A DNA stretch of 31,951 nt from Candidatus Asbonarchaeum danakilense (GTDB taxonomy: Archaea; Nanohalarchaeota; Nanosalinia; Nanosalinales; Nanoanaerosalinaceae), in assembly GCA_034190465.1 (NCBI GenBank), contig JAXINV010000079.1:1-31951 (forward strand), given 5' to 3'. The notes under the pieces were generated by a model, which worked only from the letters and a program-made list of their open reading frames with translations, was not told the origin of the DNA and did not search any database. The first letter of the stretch is position 1; the number at the start of each line of letters is the position of its first letter. Shown one piece after another: positions 1 to 31,372 of the stretch. The position numbers and the translations under genes were made by a program.

Positions 1-100
1 CGGACGCCGCACTTCCACTTCGCTCCGGTGCGGGAACCCTCGTTCCCTTGCGGGAAGCACGGTGCGCCGCATCTTGTTCTGTCGTACCGGCAGCTGTCCG
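1..100 (-). ncRNA. candidate structured RNA or 5' leader (may continue beyond the window start)
   Basis: Minus strand starts about 25 nt from the TTTATAAAA box (125-133). 5' CGGAC-A-GCUGC pairs with GCGGC-GUCCG at the window edge. Internal CCGGU/ACCGG stem and UUCCC-GCAA-GGGAA (GNRA tetraloop). Confidence 0.5.
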
Positions 101-124
101 GAAACTGGCCGGATAAGGCCGCTG

Positions 125-133
125 TTTTATAAA
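125..133. promoter_or_regulatory. bidirectional TATA box
   Basis: TTTTATAAA lies about 24 nt before GTG 157 (+) and about 25 nt before the minus-strand structured segment. Confidence 0.65.
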
Positions 134-156
134 CCGGGCGTGCATGTACTGTTGGC

Positions 157-1098
157 GTGTCACGGGAGCAACCCGCTGTCGGCGTCCTCTGGAACAAAGA
201 CATCAACTTGGCCGGTGACGCGCCGTTCGAACGCGAGGTCAAGAACGCTGATTATCGCACCTTCACCGAGCTCGCCAGCCAGCGCGGTCTGACGATCTAC
301 GTCGCCAGGTTGGAATGGTACAGCGGCAGCCGGCTCAGACGTGCCTGGCGCTGGGAGGACGGCTGGGAGACCGTCGACGATGTGCCGCTGGATCTTGTCG
401 TGGACAAGTTCGCATTCACCGACGCCACCGCCACGGTCAAGCAGGCGATCGAGGACGATATCGGCACGATGAACAGATACCGGCTCAAAGAGCTGTGCCG
501 TGACAAATGGGAAACATACCAGTTGTTCGAGGACTACATGCCGGAGACACGGCAGGCGACCCGGGAGAACATTGCGGCGATGCTGGAAAAGTACGACAGG
601 GTCGTCTGCAAGCCGCGGTACGGTGCTGGCGGCGAAGGCATCCAGGTCATCGACGACACTGAGGAGTTCGAGCCGGAGGACGACCTGCTGGTGCAGCGCT
701 ACATCGAGCTGGACGGCATCCAGGCGCTGGACGTTGACGGGCCGCACGACCTCCGTGTCGCGGTCGTGGACGGCGAGGTCGCTGTCAGCTATGTCAGGAC
801 GAACGACGAAGGTCAGCTGGCGAACATCAGCCAGGGCGGTGGCGAGCTGGTCTACGTCGACCGGGAGGAGCTCCCGGAAGCGGTGCATGCTATCGTCGAG
901 AGGACGGTCAGGGAGTTCGAACGGTTCCAGCCGTGTCTCTACACCGTCGACTTCGTGTTCGGTCCTGACGAGCAGCCGTACCTGATCGAGCTCAACACCA
1001 AGCCGCCGTTCGGCTACCACCGTGAGATCCAGGAGGCCGAACGTGAACGGCCGCTGATCGACGGTATCCTGGACATCATCGAGGAACGCACCGGCTAG
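157..1098 (+). CDS. ATP-grasp ligase (RimK/YheCD-like)
   Basis: Motifs DKWETYQ, VVCKPRYGAGGEGI, LLVQRYI, HDLRV, ANISQGGG and TVDFV...YLIELNTKP. Acidic composition. Confidence 0.85.
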   Translation: MSREQPAVGVLWNKDINLAGDAPFEREVKNADYRTFTELASQRGLTIYVARLEWYSGSRLRRAWRWEDGWETVDDVPLDLVVDKFAFTDATATVKQAIEDDIGTMNRYRLKELCRDKWETYQLFEDYMPETRQATRENIAAMLEKYDRVVCKPRYGAGGEGIQVIDDTEEFEPEDDLLVQRYIELDGIQALDVDGPHDLRVAVVDGEVAVSYVRTNDEGQLANISQGGGELVYVDREELPEAVHAIVERTVREFERFQPCLYTVDFVFGPDEQPYLIELNTKPPFGYHREIQEAERERPLIDGILDIIEERTG

Positions 1099-1099
1099 C

Positions 1100-2734
1100 T
1101 CACGACGGGTTCTCCAGCAGCAGTGCGAAATGCTGGTCAGCGCTGTAGGTCAGTTCGGTCAGGCCGTACGGCCGTTCGATGTCCCGGTGACCCTTCTTCT
1201 CGACCGGGAGCTCGGATTCGTCGGTATTTTTCGTGCTGTACAGCTGTGCGACACCGATCCTGTCGCCTGAACCGCCACCGACCCTGCCGTCGTTCCTGCC
1301 GGCGACCACGTAGTCGAAGCCGTTTTCCAGGCCGTAGGCGATGCTCGCCAGGCCCATGACTGGGAGCGCGTCACCGAATTCCTCGAAGTTGCAGGCGCTG
1401 TCCGGGTGGCCGCCCTCCTGACCGTCCTTGTACTGCATCCCCAGGTTGTCGATCGCGAATACGTCGTCTCCATCAGCGTCCAGGTGGAAGGCGCGGGCCA
1501 TCCCGATCCATTCGTCCTCATCGTCTCGCCTGACACCAAGGATCGTGGTGAACGGGTCGTCCGCCAGGTCCTCGTAGTAGTCGGTGGCGTGCCGCCGGCA
1601 GTTGCCGATGTCCTGGGCCGCCTGCTGCATCTCGTCAGGGTTGTCGATCTTGTAGACCTCGTACGGCATGTCGGCAGTACCCCAGTGTCGTTCCAGCGCG
1701 GCAAGTGTCTCATCCACGCGGAACCGTTCGATGGCGTTCCTGTAGCCGTCCTGCAATGCCTCCAGCTCGTCCTTTGAGGCGTCCGCCGCTCCTGTTGCGG
1801 CCCGCTGGATGTCCTTGCCGACCGCTTCCTGCAGTTGGTCGGCTGCCGCCCGCTGGACGGAGGGATGGCTGCTGTCCCACCGGACACCCATGACCGTCTC
1901 GCCGGCTTTGCTCTCCATCGCGGCCAGACTCCCGGGAAGCCCGTTCTCGACCTGCTCCGGGCTGGCCTCGGCTGTCAGCCGTTCGCCCTCGATCATCGCG
2001 GCCGCTGCTTCGTCGTATTCAGTTACCGTCGCCTCGACATCGTCGGCCATCCGCCGGACGAGGTGGCGCTGGATCGCCCGCGGGTCGAGCTCCGCGCCGT
2101 CGTACACCTTCTCAACGCCGTCCCGCAGCCGGTGGGTCGGCAGGAGGTCGTCGACAGTCTCCTCCACTGCATCGTGTGCCAGGTCGTCGACCCGGTCGTT
2201 GTAGAACATGTGGTCCTTGACGTACCGTTCCTCCGCGGCGTCGACGATGGCCGGCCGGATCTCGTCGATGAGATCGCTGCCACGGGCTCCCAGTTCCTCG
2301 GTGAGCGCGTCGTGGATCGCCGCAGGACTTGCATCGACCTCGCTGGCCGCGACCTCGAGCAGCCGGTCGGCGGTGACGGCGTCCTGGACGGCGTCCTCGT
2401 ACTCGTCCCTGAACGTCTCGCGTCGCTCTGCCTTGCTGGTGCCGCGGTCGGACGGCAGGCCTGCCCCTGTCGTGTCCGGCGTGGTCGTCACCGGGTCGAT
2501 CGTCTTCAGCTCCGTGTTGGTCTCCTTCTCGTAGCCTGTCTCCATCGTCTCGTAGAACGCGTCGTCATCGAGCCCAGACCCGTCGAACGTGTAGCCGTTG
2601 ATCGTCTCCTCGAGGTCGGTGCCGTACACCCCGTCATCGTCGTCGAACAGGGTTTCGGTGTCCTTCAGGTATTTGTCAGCGAGCGTGTCCCGCTCCTCAT
2701 CGTCATCGTCGCCACCGAAGAGGTCGTCCAGCAT
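1100..2734 (-). CDS. acidic hypothetical protein, possible C-terminal GNAT-like/PcfJ-like domain
   Basis: 544-aa ORF with halophilic composition. TATA-like TTTTTAAT at about 2760-2767 gives a leaderless start. The domain call is only a motif resemblance (DIGNC...DP..TILGV...IGMARAF...FAIDNL). Confidence 0.6.
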   Translation of the reverse strand: MLDDLFGGDDDDEERDTLADKYLKDTETLFDDDDGVYGTDLEETINGYTFDGSGLDDDAFYETMETGYEKETNTELKTIDPVTTTPDTTGAGLPSDRGTSKAERRETFRDEYEDAVQDAVTADRLLEVAASEVDASPAAIHDALTEELGARGSDLIDEIRPAIVDAAEERYVKDHMFYNDRVDDLAHDAVEETVDDLLPTHRLRDGVEKVYDGAELDPRAIQRHLVRRMADDVEATVTEYDEAAAAMIEGERLTAEASPEQVENGLPGSLAAMESKAGETVMGVRWDSSHPSVQRAAADQLQEAVGKDIQRAATGAADASKDELEALQDGYRNAIERFRVDETLAALERHWGTADMPYEVYKIDNPDEMQQAAQDIGNCRRHATDYYEDLADDPFTTILGVRRDDEDEWIGMARAFHLDADGDDVFAIDNLGMQYKDGQEGGHPDSACNFEEFGDALPVMGLASIAYGLENGFDYVVAGRNDGRVGGGSGDRIGVAQLYSTKNTDESELPVEKKGHRDIERPYGLTELTYSADQHFALLLENPS

Positions 2735-2766
2735 CGTACCACGTACTTACTCAGCAGCCTTTTTAA

Positions 2767-2786
2767 TTGTTACTCTTGAGTGACAA
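2767..2786. promoter_or_regulatory. imperfect palindrome (candidate operator) abutting a TATA box
   Basis: TTGTTACTC-TT-GAGTGACAA: 9-bp arms with one mismatch. Confidence 0.45.
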
Positions 2787-2862
2787 AAATAGATGGTCGC
2801 GGCGAGAAGGTTGTAGAGGCTGCCCTTCTGTTCGTCGACAGAAATGGGGTGTGTCGGCGGGT

Positions 2863-3471
2863 TCACTCCGTGTAGACGCCGACGCCGTCGTACGGCTCTT
2901 CGAGCGGTGTTGTGGAGAAGTTGCCCAGCGCCCACTGCAACCGTTGCTCGTCGCCCGACACCGGGATGGCGTGGATGCGTCCCATGTAGATGCCTGCCGC
3001 GACCTCCTCGGGGTAGAACCTGCTGGTGTTCCTGAGTCCTCTGCCCCAGTAGACCCGCAGATCGCCGCCGTACCTGTCCATGAAGTCCTGATCCGCGTAC
3101 GCTCTGCCGACGAAGGTGCTGTCGGCCGCGTCATACAGGGGGACGACGATCGCTTCGGGGACGCTGTTCGTCGGGTCCAAGGTCCGTGTGACGTTCAGCA
3201 CGACCTGGCCGTCGACGGTCTTTGACCCTATGATCTGCTCGTCGAAGTAGATGCCGTTCGCGAAGAACTGGGTCAGCACAGGGGCGTGGTATTCGAGCGT
3301 GTACGCGCTCTCGAACTCAGCCGTCCCGTTGCCGGCGAGCAGGGTGGCGTTGAGTATTGCTGTACCGTCATGCATCGTCACACCTGGTGTCCCGGTTGTA
3401 CCAGTGCCGCCAAGACAGCCGGCCAGCACTGCCGCCCCGACAAGGACCGTCACAGAGACGCGATCCTCCAT
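2863..3471 (-). CDS. putative lipoprotein / secreted protein
   Basis: ATG 3471 gives MEDRVSVTVLVGAAVLAGC (lipobox LAGC), followed by a Thr/Gly linker and several NxS/T sequons. Confidence 0.7.
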   Translation of the reverse strand: MEDRVSVTVLVGAAVLAGCLGGTGTTGTPGVTMHDGTAILNATLLAGNGTAEFESAYTLEYHAPVLTQFFANGIYFDEQIIGSKTVDGQVVLNVTRTLDPTNSVPEAIVVPLYDAADSTFVGRAYADQDFMDRYGGDLRVYWGRGLRNTSRFYPEEVAAGIYMGRIHAIPVSGDEQRLQWALGNFSTTPLEEPYDGVGVYTE

Positions 3472-3536
3472 GGTACCGGTCGAAAAATGATCGGCGGCTG
3501 GCTTAAATAGGTTTTGGCGGCCGCCCAACGGCCGTC

Positions 3537-5780
3537 TCACGTATCCTGATCGGGCAGCTTCCGGTCCAGGAAGTCCAGGATCGTCGCGCCGTCCTGCTTG
3601 TCCAGATGCTGGTTGGCGTTGCCGCAGGTCGGGGAGTAGACGCAGGCGTCACAGCCCTCCTCGCAGTCGCAGCCGTCCACGGTCTCCAGGCCCTCCTCAA
3701 CGATCGTCGCCAGGATGTCGAACGCCTCGTCCACCAGGCCGACCCCTCCCTCGTGTCCCTCGTGGATGAAGATCGCCGGGCCGCCGGTGTAGCCGTGCAG
3801 CTCGGTGGAGAGTCCTCCCAGGTCATGGTTCCGATCGCAGAGGACGTGCAGCGGCATGACGCCGATTATCGCGTGCTCCGCCGCGTGCAGGCCGTCGCCC
3901 AGCGTGTCGACCTCCTTCGGCGTGCCTTTCAGCTTGAAGCCGATCGCCTTGGTCCGGAACGAGAACGGCAGCTGCCGGTCCGGCGCGTAGTCGTGCGTCG
4001 CGATGGTCTCGTTCGTCGACTTGTCCCGCTCGAAGTAGCCGGTCACGTTGCCGTGCACCGTCACGTCGGCCAGGAACACGTCCACCCGGTCGCCCTCCCG
4101 CCGCTCCAGCTCCTCGTTGACCTCGATCTGCTTGTCCTTCTGCGGCTTGGTGTAGTAGCTCAGCCGTTGCCGCTTCCGCTCCAGCGTGACCTGGTCCCTG
4201 TCCGTGTCGAACGCCTCGACCCGGTACTGCCTGCCGCCGTGCAGGTAGATCGCCTCGGGATACACGTCCTTGATCGCGTCGCCGTACGAAAGGGTGGTCA
4301 GCGTCTTCCCGCTCGACGTGTTCAGGTAGATCGTCCGGTCGTCGATGTTCCGCAGGTTGAACGGCTTGCCCTTCGCCTCGTCGGTCGGCATCCACCGCCT
4401 GCCGCCCTGTTCGATCAGTCCCGCCTCCGCAGCGCTGAGCAGCCCTTCCTGGAACCGGCCGAAGTAGTCGTCGTCCCGCTCCGTGACCGGCCGCTCCACT
4501 GCCGCCTGCGCGATGTGCTGCGGCAGGATCTCGGTGTTGGAAGGATTAACTTTCGCGCTCTCCGGTTCCGCGAACAGCTCGTCGGTGTTCGCCGCGATGT
4601 AGTGGTCCAGGTTGTCGCTGCCCGGCACCAGGAACACGTGGCTCTCCTCCTCGCCCCGGCCGGCCCGGCCTGCCTGCTGCTGGACCTGCATCCGGCTGCC
4701 GGGGTAGCCGTCGATCACGACCGCGTCCAGCGAGCCGATGTCCACGCCCAGCTCCAGCGCTGTCGTCGACCAGACGCCGAGCAGCTCGCCGCTCCGTATC
4801 TTCCGCTCCACGGTCCGGCGCTCGTCGTCGCTCAGCGCGGCGTGGTAGGCCCGGATCTTGTCCGCCAGCTCGGCGCGTTCCTCCTCGCGGAGGTCCTGGG
4901 TCAGGTTCCGTGCGTACCGCTCCGAGGTCTGGCGGGCGTTGGTGAACGCGAGGGTCTGGACGTCGCGCTCCACGAGGTTCTGCATGATCTGCTTGCTGAC
5001 CGGGTGCGGGGAGTCCTGGTTGTCCGCGATCACCCACCGCTTCTCCCCTGTGGCGCTGCTGTCCTCGTCGATGCCGTGCCAGTCCTCGGTCCCTGTCACT
5101 TTCCGCGCGTGCTCGACAGGGTTGCCGATCGTCGCTGAGCAGGCCACGATGTCAGGGTCGGCATCGAAGTGGTCCAGGATCCGCTGCAGCCGCCGGAAGA
5201 CGAGGGCGACGTGGCTGCCGAACACGCCGCGGAACTCGTGCAGCTCGTCGACCACGATCAGGTCCAGGCTGTTGAACAGCCACGACCAGGTCTGCTGGGT
5301 GGCGTAGGGGAGGAGGGAGTAGTGCACCATGTCGATGGTGGTCAGCAGCATCCTGGGCCGCTGCTCCCTGACCTTCCGTTTCTCGCCCCGGTCGAGCTGC
5401 CCGGTGTAGCTCTGGACCGCGCCGGGCGCCATCCCAGCGGCCTGGACGTAGTCCCGCAGGGTCTCTGTCTGGTCGTTGATCAGTGCCCGCATCGGTGCGA
5501 TGTATAGCGTCCGTTTGCCGTCCAGTGCCCGTTCCAGCGCGGGGATGGTGTAGACCAGTGACTTGCCGGAGGCGGTTGGGGTGGAGAGGATGACGTTGGA
5601 TCCGTCGTCCAGCGCGTCCAGTGCCTCCTGCTGGTGCTGGTACAGCTTCGTGATGCCGTGCTGTTCCAGTGTCTGTTCGACCTGGTCGTTGAGGTCGTCG
5701 GTGCCGGCGAACGTGCCGTCGGTGGCGTCCTTGGTTATCGTGTCCTTGAGCGGGCCGGGGACGATCTGTCGTGGATCCAT
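3537..5780 (-). CDS. DEAD/DEAH-box helicase with C-terminal DUF1998 Zn domain (Hrq1/MrfA/SftH family)
   Basis: LYQHQ Q-motif, TPTASGKS, DELH, SAT, TTALELGVDIG, QQAGRAGR, HAAEH and CDCEEGCDAC..PTCGN. Start taken at ATG 5780. Confidence 0.92.
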   Translation of the reverse strand: MDPRQIVPGPLKDTITKDATDGTFAGTDDLNDQVEQTLEQHGITKLYQHQQEALDALDDGSNVILSTPTASGKSLVYTIPALERALDGKRTLYIAPMRALINDQTETLRDYVQAAGMAPGAVQSYTGQLDRGEKRKVREQRPRMLLTTIDMVHYSLLPYATQQTWSWLFNSLDLIVVDELHEFRGVFGSHVALVFRRLQRILDHFDADPDIVACSATIGNPVEHARKVTGTEDWHGIDEDSSATGEKRWVIADNQDSPHPVSKQIMQNLVERDVQTLAFTNARQTSERYARNLTQDLREEERAELADKIRAYHAALSDDERRTVERKIRSGELLGVWSTTALELGVDIGSLDAVVIDGYPGSRMQVQQQAGRAGRGEEESHVFLVPGSDNLDHYIAANTDELFAEPESAKVNPSNTEILPQHIAQAAVERPVTERDDDYFGRFQEGLLSAAEAGLIEQGGRRWMPTDEAKGKPFNLRNIDDRTIYLNTSSGKTLTTLSYGDAIKDVYPEAIYLHGGRQYRVEAFDTDRDQVTLERKRQRLSYYTKPQKDKQIEVNEELERREGDRVDVFLADVTVHGNVTGYFERDKSTNETIATHDYAPDRQLPFSFRTKAIGFKLKGTPKEVDTLGDGLHAAEHAIIGVMPLHVLCDRNHDLGGLSTELHGYTGGPAIFIHEGHEGGVGLVDEAFDILATIVEEGLETVDGCDCEEGCDACVYSPTCGNANQHLDKQDGATILDFLDRKLPDQDT

Positions 5781-5863: not shown

Positions 5864-5978
5864 TTGGCCGCGAATACAGGGATGGACGGACGGTGGCACC
5901 CCAGGGGAGGATCAGGGGCCTGTCGACGCGTTCATCCGTCCACCCCCGACCCCCGCAGGTTGTATCCAGGTTCCCAAT
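5864..5978 (-). ncRNA. candidate structured RNA
   Basis: GGAUACA/UGUAUUC, 13-bp GGGUGGACGGAUG/CGUCCGUCCAUCC and GGCCCC/GGGG(U)GCC stems. Three G-U pairs on the minus strand would be A-C mismatches on the plus strand. Confidence 0.5.
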
Positions 5979-6023: not shown

Positions 6024-6146
6024 ATGCCGTCACAGCACCGCGAATTCACGATGGATCTGGGCCTGCTCTGGAACCGGCTGGAGGAAACTGATAACCGGTT
6101 CGATCAACTGGTTCTGGACAACCTGGCGATGTTCCAGGAAGACTGA
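6024..6146 (+). CDS. small hypothetical protein (40 aa)
   Basis: MPSQHREFTMDLGLLWNRLEETDNRFDQLVLDNLAMFQED. GAGGTG SD-like motif upstream. The stop abuts the convergent ArsR gene. Confidence 0.5.
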   Translation: MPSQHREFTMDLGLLWNRLEETDNRFDQLVLDNLAMFQED

Positions 6147-6147
6147 G

Positions 6148-17135: not shown

Positions 17136-17142
17136 TTTAAAA
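17136..17142 (+). promoter_or_regulatory. TATA box of proS
   Basis: TTTAAAA about 26 nt before the start of the paired leader. Confidence 0.65.
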
Positions 17143-17168: not shown

Positions 17169-17288
17169 GTGAGAGCGATGGACGCTGGCAAGCAGGGTGG
17201 CTGTGTTCCGCGCAGGGGACGATGAATCGGTCCGGGCAGGCCAGCATGTATTCTACCATACGCATCCTGGTTCCAGCATCCGCTCCAC
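17169..17288 (+). ncRNA. structured 5' leader of proS
   Basis: Nested pairings GUG/CAC, GAGC/GCUC, GGA/UCC, GCUGG/CCAGC and CAGGGUG/CAUCCUG, plus inner hairpins. SD AGGTGA at 17298-17303. Confidence 0.6.
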
Positions 17289-17309
17289 GGTTTCTCCAGG
17301 TGATCGACG

Positions 17310-18815
17310 ATGACTGATGAACAAGAACTCGGTATCACGGTGAGCAAGGACCAAAACATGTCCGACTGGTACACCCAGGTCGTGAAGAAGGCGGAGCTGG
17401 CGGACTACGCGCCGGTGAAGGGCTGCATGGTGATCAGGCCGTACGCCATGGATATCTGGGACCGGTTGAAGGACGTGTTCGACGACTGGATCGAGGACGA
17501 GGTCGATAACGCATACTTCCCGCTGTTCATCCCGGAGTCCTACCTGGAGAAGGAGAAGGACATCGTCGAGGGCTTCGACCCGGAGGTCGCCTGGGTGGAG
17601 AACGCGGGTCAGGATGAAGAGCTTGAGGAACGCCTGGCGGTCAGGCCGACCAGCGAGTCCATCATCGCGCCGTTCATGGCGGACTGGATCCGCAGCCACC
17701 GCGACCTCCCGTTCCGCCTCAATCAGTGGTGCAACGTGGTCCGCTGGGAGGCGACGGACACCCGTCCATTCCTCAGGACCCGCGAGTTCCTCTGGCAGGA
17801 GGGCCACACCGCCCACAAGGATGAGGAGAGCGCGACAGAAGAGGTGATGAAGCGGCTGGACCAGTACGCCCGGCTGTACGAGGACTACCTGGCGATCCCG
17901 GTGCTGAAGGGCCGGAAGCCGGAGCATGACAAGTTCCCTGGCGCGATCGTCACGACGACAGTCGAGTCCCTGATGCCGGACGGGAAGTCGATTCAGGGCG
18001 GGACGTCGCACAACCTGGGCACGAACTTCGCGGAGGCGTTCGACATCGAGTACGAGGACCGCAACCAGGAGAAGCAGTACTGCTACACGTGTTCCTGGGG
18101 GCTGTCGACCCGGGCGCTGGGCGCGCTGATCATGGCGCACGGCGACGACGACGGGCTGGTGCTGCCGCCCGAGGTGGCGCCGACCCAGGTCGTGATCGTG
18201 CCGATCTACCAGGAGGACAACCGTGACGAGGTGCTGGTCTACGCTGACGAGGTCGCTGACCGGCTTGACGGGTTCAGGGTCGAGGTCGACGACCGCGACT
18301 ACAAGACGCCCGGCTTCAAGTTCAACGAACACGAGCTCCGTGGTGTGCCGCTCCGCCTGGAGATCGGTCCCAACGAGGTCGAGGACCAGGTCGTCACGGC
18401 GGCCCGCCGGGACGACGGCAGCCAGGAGGAGCTGGCGCTTGACGGCATCGACGCCGCTGTCGAGGAGCTGCTTGAGGACATCCAGGTCGCGCTGTACGAA
18501 CGCCTGAAGGACTACCGCGACGACCACATCGCTGAGGCGGACAGCTACGAGAAGATCCTGGAGCTGATTGGCCGGCAGCGCGGCTATGTCAAGGCACCGT
18601 GGTGCGGCGATGAGGCCTGCGAGGCGGAGGTCAAGGACCAGGTCCACGCCGAGATCGTGATGGTGCCGTTCGAAGACGAAGATCCGATTTCCGGATCTTC
18701 TGGAAGCACGCGATCTGAAGGATCGGTGCAGGACGAGCAAGAGGAGCTGACCGGCAGCTGCGCCATCTGCGACAAGGACGCAGAGTTCACGGCGTACTTC
18801 GCGAAGAATTACTAG
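17310..18815 (+). CDS. proS: prolyl-tRNA synthetase, archaeal/eukaryotic type
   Basis: WY..VV.KAELADY, RPTSE, LNQWCNVVRWE, PFLRTREFLWQEGHT, QGGTSHNLG, SWGLSTR and the C-terminal C..C...FAKNY. Confidence 0.98.
   Translation: MTDEQELGITVSKDQNMSDWYTQVVKKAELADYAPVKGCMVIRPYAMDIWDRLKDVFDDWIEDEVDNAYFPLFIPESYLEKEKDIVEGFDPEVAWVENAGQDEELEERLAVRPTSESIIAPFMADWIRSHRDLPFRLNQWCNVVRWEATDTRPFLRTREFLWQEGHTAHKDEESATEEVMKRLDQYARLYEDYLAIPVLKGRKPEHDKFPGAIVTTTVESLMPDGKSIQGGTSHNLGTNFAEAFDIEYEDRNQEKQYCYTCSWGLSTRALGALIMAHGDDDGLVLPPEVAPTQVVIVPIYQEDNRDEVLVYADEVADRLDGFRVEVDDRDYKTPGFKFNEHELRGVPLRLEIGPNEVEDQVVTAARRDDGSQEELALDGIDAAVEELLEDIQVALYERLKDYRDDHIAEADSYEKILELIGRQRGYVKAPWCGDEACEAEVKDQVHAEIVMVPFEDEDPISGSSGSTRSEGSVQDEQEELTGSCAICDKDAEFTAYFAKNY
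18675..18736. repeat. 57-nt two-hairpin palindromic element in frame within proS
   Basis: GACGA direct repeats 57 nt apart enclose GAAGATCCG-ATTTC-CGGATCTTC and GCAC(G)CGATC-TGAAG-GATCGGTGC. Confidence 0.65.
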
Positions 18816-18985
18816 CGTAATTCTTCAGTTCCTCCGTCCGTCGCCGGACTCCGGTTGCCAAGAACTACTAGCGTAGTTCTTGTCTGCCCCTCACAACCTC
18901 CGGTAGCTCGGTTGCGAAAAACTACTGACGTAGTTTTTCATTTTCTCACGCGCCAGTGGCGGGTTCGGTCGCGAAGAACTACTGG
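18801..18985. repeat. tandem array of palindromic repeats copying the proS 3' end (period 56/57/57)
   Basis: Copies at 18801, 18857, 18914 and 18971. The first three are perfect 10-bp hairpins separated by about 30-nt variable spacers that end in CGGTY. Confidence 0.9.
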
Positions 18986-19089
18986 TGGGCTGGCCGCCCG
19001 TCGATCTGTTTTTTCTCTTTCCTGACAGCTGTGACGACGCATCGGCCGCTGCCGACATCCTTTAAAATCTCGGTGCCCGGTTGTGACGT

Positions 19090-19801: not shown

Positions 19802-20260
19802 ATGGATCGACACCGGCTCCGTGAGAGGATCTACGAATACGATGCGAGGATCGCCCCTTGGCTCAGTCAGGAGGGTGTCGTCGTGCTGCGGTACAGTCTG
19901 GCACTGATCTTCATCTGGTTCGGCGCGCTGAAGCCGCTGGGGCTGAGTCCGGCTGCGGGCTTTGCCAGTCGGACGATCCCGTGGATGCCTGCAGATATCT
20001 GGATCCCATTGCTCGGTTTCTGGGAGGTTGCGATCGGCCTCTGCTTCCTCTACCGCCCACTGATCCGTGTCGCCCTGCCGTTGATGGGGCTGCACATGCT
20101 GGGGACGTTCTCAACGTTCTTCCTGCTACCTGAAGCGGTCTTTGCCCAGTTCCCGTTCGTGCTGACGATGGAGGGACAGTACGTGGTGAAGAATCTGGTC
20201 CTGATCGGGGCCGCGATGGTGGTCGGCGGTATCGTGACGGGGGAGACAAGCTCTTCGTGA
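19802..20260 (+). CDS. DoxX/DUF417 (YkgB-like) membrane protein
   Basis: LRYSLALIFIWFGALK, LGFWEVAIG and EGQYVVKNLVL motifs. Four hydrophobic segments. Confidence 0.82.
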   Translation: MDRHRLRERIYEYDARIAPWLSQEGVVVLRYSLALIFIWFGALKPLGLSPAAGFASRTIPWMPADIWIPLLGFWEVAIGLCFLYRPLIRVALPLMGLHMLGTFSTFFLLPEAVFAQFPFVLTMEGQYVVKNLVLIGAAMVVGGIVTGETSSS

Positions 20261-20279
20261 GAAGTGGAAAGGAAAGGGA
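20261..20279 (-). terminator. pyrimidine-rich terminator of the 171-nt RNA
   Basis: Minus strand reads TCCCTTTCCTTTCCACTTC directly after the closing stem. Confidence 0.5.
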
Positions 20280-20450
20280 GGAAACACCCCGCCGTCCCCT
20301 ATCGGCCGTGGAGTTATGACCGATGTGTTAGAGTGACTTCCCATCACACCCGGTTGCGGAGAGGTGGGTTATCGGGCATCCTCCCGGTATCCCCATCCTT
20401 TGCTCTTCGGTTTGGGGACTTTGAGTTGTTCGGGTTGACGGGGCGTATCC
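20280..20450 (-). ncRNA. candidate stand-alone 171-nt structured ncRNA
   Basis: TTATAAA box 23 nt upstream. 14-position terminal helix GGAUACGCCCCGUC/GGCGGGGUGUUUCC. Internal helices ACCCG/CGGGU, GUCCCCA/UGGGGAU, GGGAGG/CCUCUC, GUGAU/GUCAC and AUCGGUC/GGCCGAU. No convincing ORF. Confidence 0.7.
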
Positions 20451-20473: not shown

Positions 20474-20480
20474 TTTATAA
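20474..20480. promoter_or_regulatory. TATA box within a quasi-palindrome
   Basis: CAAACC-TTTATAAG-GGTTG. Confidence 0.65.
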
Positions 20481-20614
20481 GGGTTGTCCGGGCCGCCCCG
20501 GCTGGAAGAAAGCGCCTGTCCTGGCTCGGTGCCAGGATTATTAGTATTGGTTCTCCTCCCTTTTATGGATTCCGCCCCTCCACTACATGTCGTACCGTGC
20601 CGCGGTAACAACCA

Positions 20615-20622
20615 TTATATAT
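20615..20622. promoter_or_regulatory. bidirectional TATA box
   Basis: TTATATAT flanked by CAACC and GGTTG. Confidence 0.6.
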
Positions 20623-20655
20623 CGGGGTTGCCAAGTATTGTACCAGAACTTCGAA

Positions 20656-20764
20656 GGCTCCTTGCGGGGGAAGCACAGTTGAGCCAAGCGACAACATCGG
20701 GGGACACGTCAGGAAGATCGGTCGTTCTAGCTTCCGCTATCCACTCTTTCTGCTCCAGGGAGCC
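20656..20764 (+). ncRNA. candidate structured 5' leader of the 929-aa gene
   Basis: 9-bp closing stem GGCUCCUUG/CAGGGAGCC and internal GGAAGC/GCUUCC, followed by SD-like AGGGTGTGA. Confidence 0.45.
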
Positions 20765-20782
20765 CGTCAAGGGTGTGACTAG

Positions 20783-23572
20783 ATGAAGACTGTCAACGAG
20801 TACCAGGACAATCCGGAGGCACGTTACCAAAAAGAGTTCGAATGGCTCAAACAGGGGGATGAACTAGACTCGCGCTACCTGGCCGAGGAATTCGACATCA
20901 GTCCGAGCACCGCCAGGGAGGATCTTTCCGCGCTCAGTGACCGGCTTGGCCTGGAACCGGAACGCGGCGATCACGGCCGCCACGTCTATTCGCTGCCGGT
21001 CGACGATCCGGGCTACCTGGAGAAGTCTGAGGTCCGTGAGGCGGACGATATTGCCAACTACCTCTTCGGCGAGGCCTCCGGCATGCACCGCGATCTGAAC
21101 AACGATGAATGGGAGGAGAAGGAATCCATGACCCTGCTCACCATGTCGGAGCTGGGCTGGGGCACGAAGTTCAGCAGCGAGGAGGCCGTCGACGCGCTCG
21201 CGTACAAACTTGAGGAGAAGATCGATGCCGACGAACTCGACCCCGACGAGAACTTCGGCATCGTGATGAACGGCGGCGTGCTTCCCCGCATCTCGAAGTG
21301 GAACTACAAGACCGCCCGCCACGCCTACCGCGCCCTCGCGGAGTGGGAGGAGAACGAGTCGGACTCCACCGTCGAGGAGCTACGTGATACCGACCAGCTT
21401 GCAGAATACCTTGAGGACGAAAACATCCCGGACGATCCGGAGGAACGGGAGGAGTTCCTGGCTGGTGTCCAGGAGAAGATGGATGAGGTTCTCGACGGCA
21501 ACGAGAACATGCTCACCAACCTGCAGGAGGCCAGCGAGTACGCAGAAGCCCAGGTGGACAAGATCTACGACGCGCTTGGGGCGGAAGCAGATCTCTACAT
21601 GCACATGGGCGAGCAGGACGAGGCCAACATCGAGGACATGGAGGAGCTGAAGATCCAGGAGCTGACCGACGAGGTCGAGGACCGGATGGAGACGCTGCAG
21701 GAGAAGATCGATTCGCGGAACGACATGCTCCAGACGATGTCCCGTGAACTGGCAGACCTCGAGGGCGAACAGTACGACGAGGTCCGGGAGGAGATCGAGG
21801 AACACCTCGCGAACGACCGGGACCCCCGTGAACTGGAGCTCGAGGACTACGATATCGACAGCAGCGACCTGGAGACGTACGAGGAAGCACTTGAGGAACA
21901 GGAAGACCTCATCAAGGAGATCCGAGAGATGGAGCACAACCGGAACGCGATGCTCGTCGAGAAGGCGTTCGGCGAGGCAGCGGACTGGGGCAACCGGAAG
22001 TACCTTCCACCGGACAAGTCCGTACTGGCCCGCAAGCTTGCGGAGCTGGAGTACGAGGAGTACTACCACCAGATCGGCAACGTCGAGGAGGTGGACCGCG
22101 AATCTGACGTTACACGGTTCGACGTCGGCGGGTTCACGGTCGATCTGGCGCACAAGCTCCACTACACGAATACACCGCTCAAGACCGGGTTCAAGAAGGA
22201 GAAACGGAAGTACAAGGACCGTCAGGACGAGGAGGCCGACCTGTTCCTCACCGGCCACCACGGCCCGTTCAAGGCGCAGCAGTTCGTCCACGGCCGGGGC
22301 GAAGACGAGAACGACCACACCTGGATGGTCCAGCTATCAACGTTCATGGACCCTGAGAAACTGGAGGAAAACGGACTGGAGGAAGGCCTGACCCAGCTGC
22401 AGGACGTGAAGCGGATGGGCAAGGGCTTGTTCGACTCCACGGTCTCACTGATCAACATGACGGTCGAGGAAGGTCCTGACGGCGAGCTGCGGAAGCGGTT
22501 CAACGTTGAGGGCTGGGACGGCGAATACCTGAAGCGGCTGGGTGAACAGCTGAACGGTGAGAAGGTGCCGGGCAAGGACTTCGCCGACACGGATGACCGA
22601 CAGCACGTTGTCGCCCGTGGCGACGACCAGATCGGCGCCCAGCACGATATGGAATACATCTACGAACCGCTGACCGAGGAGGTCATCGCCGAGGACTTCC
22701 ACAACATCGATGAGTGGATGGACGGCCTCGAGGGCGACGCGACCGTGATCGAGGTCGGGGACGCGTTCCAGGGTACCGATGTCTACGATGGTCAGCAGCA
22801 GGAGGGCTCGATGTACCTCGGGATGGAGGAGCTCGACCTGAAGTCGGCGATCATCTCGGTGTTCGAGGACGAGGATGTCGAGTTCGAGTCCAAGGACGAG
22901 TTCTACGATTTCCTCCAGGAGACCGACCTTAGCTCAGAGACGCAGATGGCGCTGGACTATGCTGATCACCGCGACAAGCGCCAGGTCCCGGTCAACAACA
23001 TCGCGAAGCAGGGCGAGCTGGTCGAGGAGCTCTTGGTCGACAACTACGAGGAACTGATCGACCGCGGCGCTGATATGATCATCGTGGACGGCAACCACTA
23101 CAACGACAACCTGGACGGCCTCAGTGAGTCGGAGCGGTTGCTGGAGATCTTTGACTCGGAGTACCACGATGAGATCCGCACCGGTGACGGCAACGGTGAC
23201 GGCGACGGCACGTTCTACCTGGAGGGGGAGGACGGTGAGACGCTCCAGGTCCGGGCTAAGCACAGGCCGACAGGTTACGGCGCTGAGACGGTCGACAAGC
23301 TGCTGGACCAGGCGGTGGAGCAGGACACTGACCTTTTCGTCGCAGGCCACCTGCATGTCCCGTCGTTCGGCAAGCAGAACGATCTGATGGCGATGATGCC
23401 GGGATCGGCCCAGGCGACGAACGATTTCGTGAAGGGCTTCACCGATGCGCCGGCCGAGAAGGGCGCGGTCTACCTGTCGATGCCCAGTGACCCGGATAAG
23501 AAGGAGTTCGAGTTCGAGCATGTGTCGGTCAAGGGCCTGAACCCGCTGACAGGAGCTGCCGACGAGGAGTAA
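20783..23572 (+). CDS. wHTH + coiled coil + tandem calcineurin-like metallophosphoesterase protein
   Basis: N-terminal LDSRYLAEEFDISPSTAREDLSAL (DeoR-like HTH). Degenerate domain 1: MSELGWG, NGGVLP, MGEQD, LAHK, TGHHG. Domain 2: GDDQIG, VGDAFQG, DGNHY, AKH, AGHLH. Confidence 0.7.
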   Translation: MKTVNEYQDNPEARYQKEFEWLKQGDELDSRYLAEEFDISPSTAREDLSALSDRLGLEPERGDHGRHVYSLPVDDPGYLEKSEVREADDIANYLFGEASGMHRDLNNDEWEEKESMTLLTMSELGWGTKFSSEEAVDALAYKLEEKIDADELDPDENFGIVMNGGVLPRISKWNYKTARHAYRALAEWEENESDSTVEELRDTDQLAEYLEDENIPDDPEEREEFLAGVQEKMDEVLDGNENMLTNLQEASEYAEAQVDKIYDALGAEADLYMHMGEQDEANIEDMEELKIQELTDEVEDRMETLQEKIDSRNDMLQTMSRELADLEGEQYDEVREEIEEHLANDRDPRELELEDYDIDSSDLETYEEALEEQEDLIKEIREMEHNRNAMLVEKAFGEAADWGNRKYLPPDKSVLARKLAELEYEEYYHQIGNVEEVDRESDVTRFDVGGFTVDLAHKLHYTNTPLKTGFKKEKRKYKDRQDEEADLFLTGHHGPFKAQQFVHGRGEDENDHTWMVQLSTFMDPEKLEENGLEEGLTQLQDVKRMGKGLFDSTVSLINMTVEEGPDGELRKRFNVEGWDGEYLKRLGEQLNGEKVPGKDFADTDDRQHVVARGDDQIGAQHDMEYIYEPLTEEVIAEDFHNIDEWMDGLEGDATVIEVGDAFQGTDVYDGQQQEGSMYLGMEELDLKSAIISVFEDEDVEFESKDEFYDFLQETDLSSETQMALDYADHRDKRQVPVNNIAKQGELVEELLVDNYEELIDRGADMIIVDGNHYNDNLDGLSESERLLEIFDSEYHDEIRTGDGNGDGDGTFYLEGEDGETLQVRAKHRPTGYGAETVDKLLDQAVEQDTDLFVAGHLHVPSFGKQNDLMAMMPGSAQATNDFVKGFTDAPAEKGAVYLSMPSDPDKKEFEFEHVSVKGLNPLTGAADEE

Positions 23573-23578
23573 GACAGG

Positions 23579-27663: not shown

Positions 27664-27915
27664 TCAGTTCTCCACGCTTTCCAGCATGGAGGCGATGTTC
27701 CAGACCTCGGTCCTGGTGTGCTGTGCGATGTTCGGATCGTTTGAGATCTCATCCAGGTAGCTCGTCGCTGTGTTCACGCGGACGGAGAGTTCCTCATCCT
27801 CGTCTTCAAGCGCCTCGATGGCGTTGTCAAGAAGATCCTGGACGTTGCTCGGTACCTGGGTGTCCTTGAGTTCTTCCATGCTGTCGATAACGTTCTGGAC
27901 GTCTGATTCTACCAT
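27664..27915 (-). CDS. UPF0147 family protein
   Basis: D..VP.NV...LDEISNDPNI..HTRT.VW.I.S.LE signature. Confidence 0.92.
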   Translation of the reverse strand: MVESDVQNVIDSMEELKDTQVPSNVQDLLDNAIEALEDEDEELSVRVNTATSYLDEISNDPNIAQHTRTEVWNIASMLESVEN

Positions 27916-27927
27916 GGTTACCACCCA

Positions 27928-28278
27928 TTACTGGGCCATACCTCCGCCCATGCCCTGCATCTCCTGCTGGAACTGGTTCTGGGTGTCCTGGACCTTCTCC
28001 TTGATCTGTTTTTCCTTCTTTTCCAGGCTCTTCAGCCGGACCTCGAGGTCTTCCTGTTTCTCCTCGAGTTCGTCCTTGAGCTCCTCGTAGTCCTTGGAGA
28101 CGAGTACCGTGCCGACGGACTTGTAGAGCTGCTCGTCCTGAGAATCCTCCAGCTCGTCGAGCGCCCGTTCGATTTCCTGTTTCTCTGTCTTCGCGTTTTC
28201 TTTCTGCATCGTTACCTGCTGCAGCTGCTGACGCATCTGCTGGATCTGCATCGCCATCTGTTGACTCTGGTCATCCAT
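27928..28278 (-). CDS. pfdB: prefoldin beta subunit
   Basis: Two coiled-coil arms around YKSVGTVLV. Operon context. Confidence 0.95.
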   Translation of the reverse strand: MDDQSQQMAMQIQQMRQQLQQVTMQKENAKTEKQEIERALDELEDSQDEQLYKSVGTVLVSKDYEELKDELEEKQEDLEVRLKSLEKKEKQIKEKVQDTQNQFQQEMQGMGGGMAQ

Positions 28279-28305
28279 GGGTGGTCACCTCTGCCCGTAG
28301 ACGGG

Positions 28306-28518
28306 CTAGACGAACTTTGAACTGAGCTTTGTGAGACGGGTGGTGGTGTTGAGTGTGCCACGAAGCACGCCCAAGCTATCTGTCTCGATGTCGATGACAA
28401 CGTTGTCGTCATCGACGCTGACATCAAAGGAAACGCGGTCCGATCCGCCGAGGTCGGGCTTGATCGCCGTGTGAACCTTTTCGGGCTTGTCAACGTCGAG
28501 CCGGAGTGTCGCCTCCAT
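28306..28518 (-). CDS. pcc1: KEOPS complex subunit Pcc1
   Basis: AIKPD...R...I.TDSLGVLRGTLNT. Located between rpoP and pfdB. Confidence 0.85.
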   Translation of the reverse strand: MEATLRLDVDKPEKVHTAIKPDLGGSDRVSFDVSVDDDNVVIDIETDSLGVLRGTLNTTTRLTKLSSKFV

Positions 28519-28658
28519 TATCGTGCCTGGACGGTCTGTTTCTCCTCGGGTCGTTGCTTGAGGATGATCCGACCGGAGCACTTGGGGCAGATGATCTTCT
28601 CCTTGACCGGGTTGATGTCAATCTCTTCCTCGCATTTCGCACAGACGTAGCCTGCCAT
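28518..28658 (-). CDS. rpoP: DNA-directed RNA polymerase subunit P (Rpo12); not in the ORF track
   Basis: MAGYVCAKCEEEIDINPVKEKIICPKCSGRIILKQRPEEKQTVQAR. TAATG overlap with pcc1. Confidence 0.93.
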   Translation of the reverse strand: MAGYVCAKCEEEIDINPVKEKIICPKCSGRIILKQRPEEKQTVQAR

Positions 28659-28663
28659 CTGTA

Positions 28664-28885
28664 TCAGTCCTCCAGGCGCTCCTGCGCAGCTTCGAGTTCC
28701 TCGGTTCCCTCGCGGATGGCCTTCTCGATCTTGTCCGCGGCACCGGTGTCGGACGTGTAGGCGCCACCGGCGATCTTCTTACCGGTCTTGGTATCCTTCC
28801 AGACTCCTGCTGCTTCTCGCTTCAGTTTCCCCTGTGCTCGCTCGTGTTCTTCCTTATCGACGAATTCTTTCTGTCGCTTGGGCAT
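28664..28885 (-). CDS. rpl37ae: ribosomal protein eL43 (L37Ae), truncated and Cys-free
   Basis: KREAAGVW...GKKIAGGAY motif. Canonical position between rrp42 and rpoP. GGTGA SD. Confidence 0.82.
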   Translation of the reverse strand: MPKRQKEFVDKEEHERAQGKLKREAAGVWKDTKTGKKIAGGAYTSDTGAADKIEKAIREGTEELEAAQERLED

Positions 28886-28974
28886 AGCGTTCACCACCGC
28901 TGTTGGCATGACTGTCTGTGAATATTTTTAAATACACGTGGTCTGTGGAAAAAATGGGGGAGGGAGACGGGCTG

Positions 28975-29772
28975 TTACGCCCGCTCCAGCGCGTCCCTGA
29001 CCTTCTCCCTGAGCATCTCGCCCTTTTCCTTGGACGTTCTCAGGATCTCCATGACATCGTCGTCGGACAGAGCCTCTGGCTCGCCCTTCTGCATGGAGAC
29101 GACGTTGCCGTCCTCCTTGATCGTCGAGGTCAGCCGTGCCCGACGGACGTCCTCTTCGTCGGCCGTCGTGTCGAACAGGATCTGACCTGCGATCTTGGAC
29201 CCGGTCACAGTCATGGGGAGACCTTCCGTCTCGAGCGGCTGCCGCTCGTCCCTGTCGACCGTGCCTTCCTCTTCGTCGTAGGTCGGGAGGTCGGCGAGCT
29301 TGAGCGCTGTAACAGCGCCCAGCGACGCCGCGTCGATCAGGTTGCCGTCGTAGTCGATGACGTGGATGTCAATGAAGACCATCCAGCACGTCTCGCCCTC
29401 CTCGATGATGAGTTCCTCGAGGTCGAGCATCCCGGATTCCCGGATACCTCGATCGACGAGCCGTGCGAGCTCTGTGGCCTCATCACCGGGCGGACCTGAC
29501 TCGTACCGCGGTGCCGCCATACGGGTCAGCTCGGCGTTGGTGATGATCGCGCCGGCGTCCGGCGTGTCGGGGTACGGATCCCCGGTCTCGGTCGAGATGC
29601 CGACGATGACCTTGGTGTCGCCCATCTCGACGTACGCGGAACCGTCCGCTGTCTCGTGGACGTAGTCGGGCTCGATGGTGATGTCACGGAACTCGTCGAA
29701 GTCCCGGCCATCCAGCCGTTCACCGTCTTCGACCGTCTTCCTGATGTTAGTCTCGTTGATTTGTAGGACCAT
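28975..29772 (-). CDS. rrp42: exosome subunit Rrp42
   Basis: RLDGR..DEFR, ADGSA, ELARLVDRGIRES and DYDGNLIDA motifs. Confidence 0.96.
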   Translation of the reverse strand: MVLQINETNIRKTVEDGERLDGRDFDEFRDITIEPDYVHETADGSAYVEMGDTKVIVGISTETGDPYPDTPDAGAIITNAELTRMAAPRYESGPPGDEATELARLVDRGIRESGMLDLEELIIEEGETCWMVFIDIHVIDYDGNLIDAASLGAVTALKLADLPTYDEEEGTVDRDERQPLETEGLPMTVTGSKIAGQILFDTTADEEDVRRARLTSTIKEDGNVVSMQKGEPEALSDDDVMEILRTSKEKGEMLREKVRDALERA

Positions 29773-30518
29773 TAGCTTTCACCTCCGTTGTAGTCACCGA
29801 CGTTTTCGAACTCCTGCCTGAGGGCGTCTTTCTGCGCCTCGAACAGTTTCTGGTTGCCGCGCTCGGCAAGCTGCAGTCCTTCCTCCACGTCGTCGGCGGT
29901 GATGTCGCCGTCCATCTGGAGGAGGGTGATCTCGTCGATGTTGCCGTTGATCGTCGCGACGGGGATGTCTGCCTTACCGTAGGCGTCTTCCTCGCCTGCG
30001 ACGTCGAGCACCATCTGGTCTTCGAGCTTGCCGACTGCTGATGCCTGGACGATCCCCTTCATCGGGATGCCGGCGTCAGCCAGTGCAAGTCCTGCCGCGG
30101 TGATGCCGGTCACTCGTGTCGAGGCGTCGGCCTCGATGACCTGGACATCGACCTTGATCGCAGCCTTGGGGAACTCCTCGAGCCGGACTGCGGGTTCCAG
30201 CGCTCGCTTGGTGACGAGGCTGATCTCTTTGTCCCGCCTGCTGGGCTTGGGACTCATCCGGTCGTCGACGGAGAATGCTGCCATGTTGTACTTGGCCTGG
30301 AGCACTGCCTTGTCGGGCTCCTGCAGGTGCTGCGGGTGCAGCTCCTTCGGTCCTTCGACGCCGGCGATGACACGGGTGTTCCCGATCTCGACCAGCGCGG
30401 AGCCGTCAGGCCTGTTGAGGATGCCGACCTCGATGTTGAGGTCACGCATCTCGTCCGGTGCCCTGCCGTCGAGGCGTTCACCGTCGACGAGCAGGTCCTC
30501 TTTCTGTTTCTGTGGCAT
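29772..30518 (-). CDS. rrp41: exosome exonuclease Rrp41
   Basis: RLDGR..DEMR, DGSA, PSRRDKEIS, ADASTR, EED..GKAD and LLQMDG motifs. Confidence 0.96.
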   Translation of the reverse strand: MPQKQKEDLLVDGERLDGRAPDEMRDLNIEVGILNRPDGSALVEIGNTRVIAGVEGPKELHPQHLQEPDKAVLQAKYNMAAFSVDDRMSPKPSRRDKEISLVTKRALEPAVRLEEFPKAAIKVDVQVIEADASTRVTGITAAGLALADAGIPMKGIVQASAVGKLEDQMVLDVAGEEDAYGKADIPVATINGNIDEITLLQMDGDITADDVEEGLQLAERGNQKLFEAQKDALRQEFENVGDYNGGES

Positions 30519-30524
30519 TGACTA

Positions 30525-31199
30525 TCACTTCCGCTCCTTCAGCCATTCCTCGACCTTGCTGGTGAGTCCGGAGACGTGGGCTTCCTTGGCGACCTTGTAG
30601 CAGGCCTGGGCCGCCAGGCTTTCCTTGTCGCCGTTGATCCAGACCCGTCCGTTCTGGCCGATGACGATGCTGGTGTTGGTATTGTCCTTGATCGTGTTTA
30701 CCATCGTGCCCTTCTTGCCGATGAGGCGGGGCACTTTCGTGGGAGGTACGGTGATGACACGTCCCTCCTCAAGCTTGCGGGCACGCTTGTCCTGCATTGT
30801 GAGCTGGACGTCTTTGCCCTTCGTGACTTTCTGGATCTTGCCGACGACGACGTCACCGATGTCGAACCAGTCTGCGATGTCGTCCTCGGTCAGGTCGACG
30901 TATTCTTCCACCGCTTCGCCGATCGGGAGGATGGCGTCGTACGGTGAGTTGATGTCGACTGTCCAGTTTGAGTGGGATACACGGGAGATCTCGCCGATGA
31001 CGGAGTCTCCTTTCTCGGGGACGTACCGTCCGCGTCGCGGACTGACACGTACCTCCCCGTCCCTGAACTCGACGGTACCGACGTATTCGGAGAGGATGTT
31101 GCCCGCCTCCAGGTAGGTACCGTCGCCCGGGCTTGCTTCGCCCGATGCCAGTGCCTGTCCAGGCACGACGATGTCACGGTTGTTGACTAATTTTTCCAT
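30525..31199 (-). CDS. rrp4: exosome RNA-binding subunit Rrp4
   Basis: VVPG, YVPEKGDSVIG (S1), VPRLIGKKG (KH) and GQNGRVW motifs. Confidence 0.96.
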   Translation of the reverse strand: MEKLVNNRDIVVPGQALASGEASPGDGTYLEAGNILSEYVGTVEFRDGEVRVSPRRGRYVPEKGDSVIGEISRVSHSNWTVDINSPYDAILPIGEAVEEYVDLTEDDIADWFDIGDVVVGKIQKVTKGKDVQLTMQDKRARKLEEGRVITVPPTKVPRLIGKKGTMVNTIKDNTNTSIVIGQNGRVWINGDKESLAAQACYKVAKEAHVSGLTSKVEEWLKERK

Positions 31200-31220
31200 G
31201 GTTGGTTCACCTTGTGGTAA

Positions 31221-31372
31221 TGTGAGAGTGAGTGGTGGATTGGCACGTTACAGCTGTATCTAGCTGGTTTGTAGCCCTCGATAGGCGTCGTGAAGTCATG
31301 TGCATCCACCTTGTGTGATGAAGGAGAATTCGGGGTTATCGGAAAACTTTTTCTCCTCTTTTTTCTCTCACA
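31221..31372 (-). ncRNA. structured 5' leader of the exosome operon
   Basis: TATAAAA at 31393-31399. Stems UGUGAGAG/CUCUCACA, GGAGAA/UUCUCC, GGUGGAU-GCAC/GUGC-CA-AUCCACC and CAGCU/AGCUG. SD AGGTGA at 31207-31212. Confidence 0.65.

Follow-up and report, generated by a model that had tools for sequence, protein, structure and literature searches.

A predicted proline-tRNA-sensing +1 frameshift cassette in the proS leader, within a mixed set of folded stretches on a nanohaloarchaeal contig

The 31,951-nucleotide (nt) contig JAXINV010000079.1 of Candidatus Asbonarchaeum danakilense, the whole of which is called the window here, carries proS for proline-tRNA ligase, a gene for a protein of 929 amino acids (aa), the rrp4 gene of the exosome operon, and further archaeal exosome, proteasome and FttA-like genes. 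It is contig C16 of the source genome (G000; 1.2 Mb, 61% GC), and the comparison set comprised 70 genomes in the class, with G001 from the same genus as G000. Genes were called by our own codon model (1381 genes, 89% coding), so that start positions and gaps are approximate. A sequence-only reading of the window had marked six folded stretches, at 1-100 (-), 5864-5978 (-), 17169-17288 (+), 20280-20450 (-), 20656-20764 (+) and 31221-31372 (-), and proposed that they form a single class of RNAs closed by pairing of their 5' and 3' ends. Our analysis points to a mixed set, in which the proS leader is the one element with a clear mechanism, a putative sensor of proline-tRNA (probability about 0.75).

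The features are collected in Table 1. The proS leader contains a short upstream open reading frame (uORF), and within it stands a word of the form GGTG-N5-NTT-CCN. The word is conserved upstream of proS in relatives, where it is again in frame within a short uORF and encodes G-x-x-V-P. GGTG resembles a Shine-Dalgarno (SD) sequence, and NTT and CCN are predicted to occupy the peptidyl (P) and aminoacyl (A) sites of the ribosome.

Table 1. Features of the window, and further cassettes elsewhere in the source genome. TSS, transcription start site; HTH, helix-turn-helix; ORF, open reading frame.
Feature	Position	Strand	Remarks
proS TATA box, TSS predicted at ~17165	17136..17141	+	spacing as in leaderless genes
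proS leader uORF, frame 0, 15 codons, one Pro codon	17178..17225	+	stop 84 nt before proS
Predicted +1 shift cassette	17196..17210	+	SD-like GGTG 17196-17199; GTT 17205-17207 in the P site; Pro codon CCG 17208-17210 in the A site
Open +1 frame starting at the shift site	17209..17313	+	to TGA overlapping the proS ATG (ATGA)
Long leader stem marked by the sequence-only reading	17169..17288	+	similar end pairing in some relatives, none in others
proS, proline-tRNA ligase	17310..18815	+	TIGR00408 above cut-off; SD AGGTGA 17298-17303
929-aa gene: upstream element 20583-20593, TATA box 20615-20622	20583..20622	+	similar layout in G001, G002, G003, G012
5' leader of the 929-aa gene	20645..20782	+	GGCTC 20656-20660, near partner 20681-20685, far partner by the SD 20758-20764; G000, G001, G002
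929-aa protein, N-terminal HTH, C-terminal calcineurin-like metallophosphoesterase	20783..23572	+	patchy, 7/70 genomes
Hairpin cassette at contig end, like sequence 3' of tRNA-Gly genes	1..100	+	G003 44/56 match, E 1.8e-4
Palindromic TATA box	125..133	.	placed for leaderless ATP-grasp ORF 157-1098 (+), equally for a minus-strand start at ~100
Imperfect GC-rich hairpin, a small ORF on one side and the helicase gene on the other	5879..5947	-	no TATA box
Structured RNA candidate, ~170-190 nt, multibranch with closing helix	20280..20450	-	TATA 20474-20480, pyrimidine tract 20260-20279
Inner hairpin conserved in rrp4 leaders, with a GGAG/CUCC core and a purine-rich tail on its 5' side	31321..31358	-	TATA 31394-31399
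Whole rrp4 leader	31221..31372	-	8-bp outer closure predicted in G000 only
Further cassette, thrS	C14:9750 (L320)		Thr codon
Further cassette, cysS	C3:25400 (L321)		Cys codon

The source genome was scanned for a GGTG-like word followed by 5 nt, NTT and any codon, with an ATG upstream and a stop of the +1 frame at the gene start. Four genes were found: cysS with TGT (Cys), thrS with ACC (Thr), proS with CCG (Pro) and a fourth with a stop codon in the A-site position. A looser scan of 760 genes returned cysS, thrS and proS again, together with one other gene. In the relatives, 56 proS loci were collected, one per genome (14 of the 70 genomes gave no match). The cassette with a Pro codon was present at 13 of them, and in 12 of these 13 the +1 frame ended -12 to +16 nt from the ATG. 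A Thr codon was found in the cassette at 21 of 30 thrS loci (the 30 best of 61 matches) and a Cys codon at 6 of 30 cysS loci (the 30 best of 59 matches), all of them coupled to the gene start. The A-site codon varied synonymously (CCA, CCG or CCT; ACC, ACA or ACT), with the amino acid constant. The same layout, with the matching codon, is conserved before three synthetases. Among the matches listed, up to 160 loci, no cassette was observed before halobacterial or bacterial proS.

When neither NTT nor coupling was required in the search, NTT was present in 40 of 40 sites with the cognate codon and +1 coupling in 39 of 40, whereas the 17 sites with a non-cognate codon showed NTT once and +1 coupling never. 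Against the expectation from shuffled spacers, +1 coupling occurred in 21 of 21 thrS sites (6.2 expected; 14 genera), in 12 of 13 proS sites (2.5 expected; 8 genera) and in 7 of 7 cysS sites (2.7 expected), one of the last lying 318 nt away and probably being due to chance. The -1 frame was coupled in 2 of each synthetase set. For serS, one of five further loci (G026) had a cassette with a Ser codon and the others were laid out differently. The serS leader of G000 (L322) and the loci L515, L517 and L518 have a conserved leaderless uORF starting M-x-G-F, followed by a second SD-like word. This frame layout is unlike the standard cassette and may represent a two-step cascade.

The long leader stem was predicted in G000, G001, G007 and G008 and was absent in G002 and G005. 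For 39 cassette leaders the mean fold z was -0.9, with only 8 below -2 and no conserved fold. According to these predictions the stem is not the conserved core of the proS leader; where it forms, it could keep the start region hidden until melted by a ribosome. The proposal that the marked stretches act in translation control is well supported for proS, but through the uORF and the reading-frame layout, which the sequence-only reading had missed, and not through a closing helix.

We infer that the proS leader is best read as a +1 frameshift that senses the aminoacyl-tRNA and acts by translational coupling. Ribosomes would initiate on the short uORF and, with ample Pro-tRNA, would read GUU-CCG in frame and terminate 84 nt before proS, too distant for a restart. 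A shortage of Pro-tRNA would leave the A site empty at CCG, and the GGUG five bases upstream would pair with the tail of the 16S rRNA at a spacing tighter than at most starts. The P-site tRNA would slip from NUU to UUN, and the ribosome, now in the +1 frame, would traverse the leader, melt the stem, terminate on the ATGA overlap and reinitiate on proS. GGUG is complementary to the 16S tail of G001, and the distance from GGTG to the start codon at genes of the source genome is most often 7 nt (89 cases, against 47 with 5 nt), compared with 5 nt in the cassette. A restart from the frame-0 stop is unlikely because these stops lie 30-169 nt before the gene in the cassette uORFs, and coupling in Haloferax is nearly gone at about 20 nt, according to the available extract of PMC10666635. 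Precedents for the single steps, namely the prfB shift, the shift in the ermC leader and 'hungry codons', are described in the available part of PMC5009743.

The same frameshift could have a transcriptional output, the shifted ribosome shielding the leader from premature termination or cleavage of the FttA type and the stop near the start being a by-product. This would fit the archaeal polarity ascribed to FttA (PMC12548453, in extract) and the 24 of 40 +1 stops that lie near, but off, the exact ATGA overlap. However, 16 of 40 fall exactly on ATGA, the commonest coupling motif, all but one lie within -12 to +16 nt, and every gene retains an SD inside the +1 frame, which makes this output rather unlikely. 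It was also considered that no frameshift occurs, and that either a stall at the cognate codon remodels the stem (translational attenuation) or GGUG is an ordinary SD that starts a +1 ORF. Several proS leaders indeed have an AUG or GUG 4 nt past GGUG in the +1 frame, and stems span the site in many leaders. The triplet is not a start codon, however, in 21 of 21 thrS sites and in several proS sites (ACG, GCC, GTA), the invariable NUU is explained by neither version, and the stems are not conserved; we consider both versions unlikely. The cognate codon within a synthetase leader might also suggest an RNA of the T-box kind, or one that mimics tRNA and is bound by the synthetase, and the motif in G000 looks like a T-box bulge. 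Yet an Rfam T-box match was not obtained in the window at E<=5, a conserved fold is missing, the base after GGUG varies and the codon is always in frame within the uORF, so that such an RNA is very improbable.

Several observations weigh against the frameshift with translational coupling. The published SD spacing for a +1 shift is 3 nt (PMC5009743, in extract) and is 5 nt from GGUG here. A slip of the Val tRNA from GUU to UUC leaves a mismatch at the first position. The cassette is optional, as 43 of 56 proS and 24 of 30 cysS loci are without it, and the relatives share ancestry, so that counts across genomes are not independent. In G018 the +1 frame stops 27 nt before proS, within another small ORF, and in two genomes the uORF starts with TTG. 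By eye, several leaders of family f3 contain another promoter-like motif by which the cassette might be bypassed, and in the serS leader of G000, which has a Ser codon after TTT, the +1 frame closes early.

Tandem copies were observed at both ends of proS. In G003 (L004) the SD and the first proS codons stand in three tandem copies before the gene, and in the proS leader of G051 (L314) the shift word stands in several variants in tandem. In the window, four recurrences of the final 15 nt of proS are spaced by about 57 nt (18801-18987, +), and three of them are then followed by their own reverse complement. This 3'-end repeat, which is built like the tRNA-trailer cassettes described below, is the sole such case among 1104 genes of G000. 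A hairpin over the proS stop codon was found in 11 of 29 relatives, several with extra units.

Whether the six stretches form one class was examined by folding them on the given strand against 200 shuffles each. End-to-end pairing can be drawn at all six loci, as had been claimed, but only two fold beyond the shuffles: z was -1.2 for 1-100, -0.2 for 5864-5978, -1.4 for the proS leader, -2.7 for 20280-20450, -0.5 for 20656-20764 and -5.2 for 31221-31372. The placement just after a TATA box held for four of the six (1-100, proS, 20.4 kb and rrp4) at 21-27 nt; the 20656 element starts at 35 nt, and 5978 has no box within 60 nt. The predicted TSS of proS was placed with the spacing of the TATA boxes of leaderless genes. 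That such genes are common was borne out, since 219 of 706 genes of G000 have a TATA-like hexamer 20-29 nt 5' of the start, with none detected for 252. The proS and rrp4 leaders do share a 5' GUGAGAG and a CAC 9 nt before AGGUGA, and CUGGAUAC is present at both 5.9 and 20.4 kb, but the common layout of the former and the shared GGAUAC of the latter are lost in G001.

With free ends, a perfect closing helix of at least 5 bp spanning 90-180 nt was found in 230 of 252 real gaps and in 1130 of 1260 shuffles (90%). With one end tied to the predicted TSS and the other to the start codon, in 47 TATA-anchored leaders, helices of at least 7 bp occurred in 32%, compared with 34% of 940 shuffles. At least 8 bp with free ends was seen in 63 of 252 gaps (25%) and 171 of 1260 shuffles (14%), gaps with tRNA flanks being counted as well. 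This excess is real but modest, and it speaks against a purely mixed set. Genome-wide, with 12 shuffles per window and hence noisy values, z was below -3 in 70 of 663 non-tRNA intergenic windows and 3 of 200 coding windows, and in 31 of 120 tRNA-like flanks. Structured elements are accordingly common between the genes of this genome, but they are of mixed kinds. Closure in relatives was kept for 20280-20450 and 20656-20764, variable for proS and lost for rrp4.

None of the six had a clear second copy in G000 or matched another element (best other hit E=0.022). Rfam covariance models gave no credible match for any of them in the window or for the 20.3-20.8 kb stretch in two genomes, and a search for tRNA and transfer-messenger RNA found none. 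RNase P RNA, signal recognition particle (SRP) RNA or an rRNA leader were rejected as identities, as the genes for these sit elsewhere (RNase P and SRP RNAs on other contigs). A single lineage-specific class of end-closed RNAs for 5'-end protection or translation control could invoke the helices at all six loci, the end pairing with altered sequence in the 20656 leader (three genomes), the 20.4-kb RNA (two) and many frameshift leaders, and the stronger folding of intergenic DNA with its excess of long closures. However, four of the six fold no better than shuffles, the rrp4 closure is missing in the other leaders folded, and the frameshift leaders fold weakly on average. Since there is no common sequence and no Rfam match, and TSS-anchored closure equals that of shuffles, a single class is improbable. 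The mixed set comprises three 5' leaders with conserved features (proS, rrp4 and the 929-aa gene), one likely stand-alone small RNA (sRNA) and one cassette resembling a mini-element; these were among the kinds proposed, but not as a unified class. End-to-end pairing picked by eye in GC-rich DNA is mostly due to chance.

The stretch at 20280-20450 (-) is likely to be a real stand-alone structured RNA, judging from the comparison with G001. Its own TATA box and a trailing pyrimidine tract are found in both genomes. The gene behind it is convergent in G000 and is co-directed with its own TATA-like box in G001; because this downstream gene differs, the RNA is not a leader. Identity to G001 was 140/171 (82%) for the RNA and 85/132 (64%) for the next spacer, and 3 of 42 predicted pairs were compensatory with none broken, in two sequences only. 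Among the strain contigs listed, at least 6 substitutions fell into the RNA, compared with at least 19 in 20487-20602; those in the RNA lay mostly in a variable arm, and one turned U-G into U-A. A model from the two sequences, which has low power, found only the same two among the 70 genomes of the class and nothing beyond its seed on 88 loci (80 viral). Two loops of 10 nt hardly vary, and by eye GGAG and CUCC could form a pseudoknot. As no long complement to the RNA was found in G000, protein binding appears more likely than an antisense role, though binding of a protein through the conserved loops in particular is doubtful. A 10-nt word common to this RNA and the rrp4 loop was rejected as a family motif: G000 has 35 copies of its 8-nt core, and strain contigs differ at one base of the word. 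A conserved peptide was also rejected, its ATG being absent in G001. The whole-length duplex computed with the neighbouring leader, without a control, was uninformative.

The adjacent leader at 20645-20782 (+) precedes the gene of the 929-aa protein, a close homolog of which is labelled Candidatus Nanohaloarchaea. Phage phosphoesterases that resemble this protein reached a feature score of 0.90, which is a lead only, and viral contigs contained neither relatives of the protein nor the 20656 motif. The element at 20583-20593 stands about 30 nt before the TATA box in five genomes, and no other copy at such a spacing was found in G000. The first 32 nt of the leader are 91% identical to G001 and the remainder 65%; a G-rich core at 20666-20676 is invariant. 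In G000, G001 and G002 the lowest-energy fold pairs the 5' GGCUC with the far partner beside the SD, which is the closure of the sequence-only reading with bases changed. Forcing the near partner costs 3-7 kcal/mol in these genomes and pulls the SD or the start codon into a stem. A switch between an SD-free and an SD-masked fold is a tentative suggestion from these three modelled sequences. The leaders of G003 and G012 have G-rich hairpin loops in another layout, and those of G039 and G051 have none.

Of 30 rrp4 loci, 10 have the purine-rich tail and the GGAG...CUCC hairpin in the leader, always 40-44 nt from a TATA box; the family of G000 contributes 7 of its 8 loci, family f4 all 3 and the others 0 of 19. 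The hairpin is probably real. Its core is invariant, which makes covariation uninformative, and only 2 of the 10 had a local z below -2. The z of -5.2 comes from the outer GUGAGAG/CUCUCAC helix, which occurs only in G000 among the leaders folded. We propose that the hairpin could be a 5'-proximal element that binds a protein or protects the end; that it is an autoregulatory site for a product of the exosome/L37Ae operon would be a guess. A frameshift cassette is not supported here, as the frames differ between genomes. The rrp4 leaders of family f3 (L074-L093) are conserved in another form, about 55 nt long and with a small hairpin close to the 5' end. A 30-codon uORF at 31205-31299 (-) ends inside the rrp4 SD, and a similar one in G001 has a short stretch in common with it.

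The plus strand of 1-100 matches the tRNA-Gly trailer of G003 and has a module in common with the tRNA-Gly trailer on contig C21 of G000. It is reasonably plausible from this match that 1-100 is the tail of a tRNA-trailer cassette. Like such cassettes, it has trailer modules in the tRNA-Gly orientation; the difference is that no tRNA gene is seen, the contig ending at position 1 with no overlapping contig. REP-like (repetitive extragenic palindromic) elements are a further comparison. A minus-strand RNA across 1-100 from the shared TATA box is possible, but the spacing of 23-25 nt from 125-133 fits the divergent ORF at 157 as well. On C5, C9, C11, C18, C21, C29, C31, C36, C46 and C53 of G000, tRNA genes are followed by repeats of the T-arm and acceptor end, spaced about 80-86 nt apart and separated by hairpins. 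Long hairpin-filled introns missed by ARAGORN seem to be present in several tRNA genes of G000 and in the tRNA-Gly gene of G003 (L043). The stretch at 5864-5978 had no homolog in 5 relatives and is probably incidental. It was rejected as a helicase leader, since the helicase is leaderless in G001 and G002, and as a remnant of the G001 gene at the same place (E=0.16 only). A 40-codon acidic ORF without a family at 6024-6146 (+) is perhaps a remnant at a rearrangement junction.

Among known systems, the cassette is closest in layout to the autoregulatory +1 frameshift of prfB (release factor 2), as described in the available part of PMC5009743. Both have a short zero-frame ORF, an internal SD just upstream (GGTG at 5 nt in 40 sites) and an NUU-type P-site codon that can re-pair, and in both a slow A-site codon would be the sensor and the +1 shift would restore the limiting factor. 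The A site of the cassette, however, is occupied by a sense codon, one for the amino acid that the enzyme itself charges, and that of prfB by a stop codon, and the SD spacing in prfB is 3 nt. The archaeal cassette lies in a separate leader and would act by coupling, its +1 frame ending at the gene start, whereas bacterial prfB gives a fusion protein. By its sequence, the cassette would work like prfB and is not a member of the prfB type. In the ermC leader ORF, a ketolide-induced frameshift likewise lets ribosomes cross the spacer, unfold the RNA and switch the downstream gene on (PMC5009743, in extract), but the trigger is a drug and not a shortage of aminoacyl-tRNA, and a portable cassette with a cognate codon is not part of it. 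The +1-frame stop overlaps or abuts the start codon as in the termination-reinitiation at ATGA overlaps in Haloferax (PMC10666635, PMC6728339, both in extract); the upstream frame here differs in having no start of its own and would be reached by the slip only.

A literature search, in which subscription journals and supplements were not covered, found no paper describing the cassette or such amino-acid sensing in archaea. It is apparently an unpublished regulatory design that is strongly supported by the comparison of leaders. A 2016 review states, in the extract available, that the natural extent of hungry-codon shifting is unclear and that no functional trans-frame product is known (PMC5009743). 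If true, the 15-base cassette, with its specificity set by one codon, would be a case in nature in which selection has put 'hungry codon' frameshifting to use, and it would suit host-dependent cells with few regulators. To our knowledge, the adjustment of tRNA-synthetase levels to the supply of amino acids is a largely open matter in archaea.

In bacteria, leader-peptide attenuators (trp, his, pheST, thr) and T-box leaders sense the charging of the cognate tRNA before synthetase or biosynthesis genes. The cassettes would likewise sense charging upstream of synthetase genes, but with a single codon in place of a run (one Pro in the uORF of G000, one to three in the relatives listed) and with the reading frame as the read-out; neither a terminator/antiterminator pair nor a T-box fold was found. 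We consider it somewhat probable that nanohaloarchaea use a portable, codon-swappable slip cassette for their synthetases as a third charging sensor beside attenuators and T-boxes, and that the same window holds an undescribed genus-specific sRNA and, before the HTH-metallophosphoesterase gene, a two-state leader that is possibly an archaeal riboswitch.

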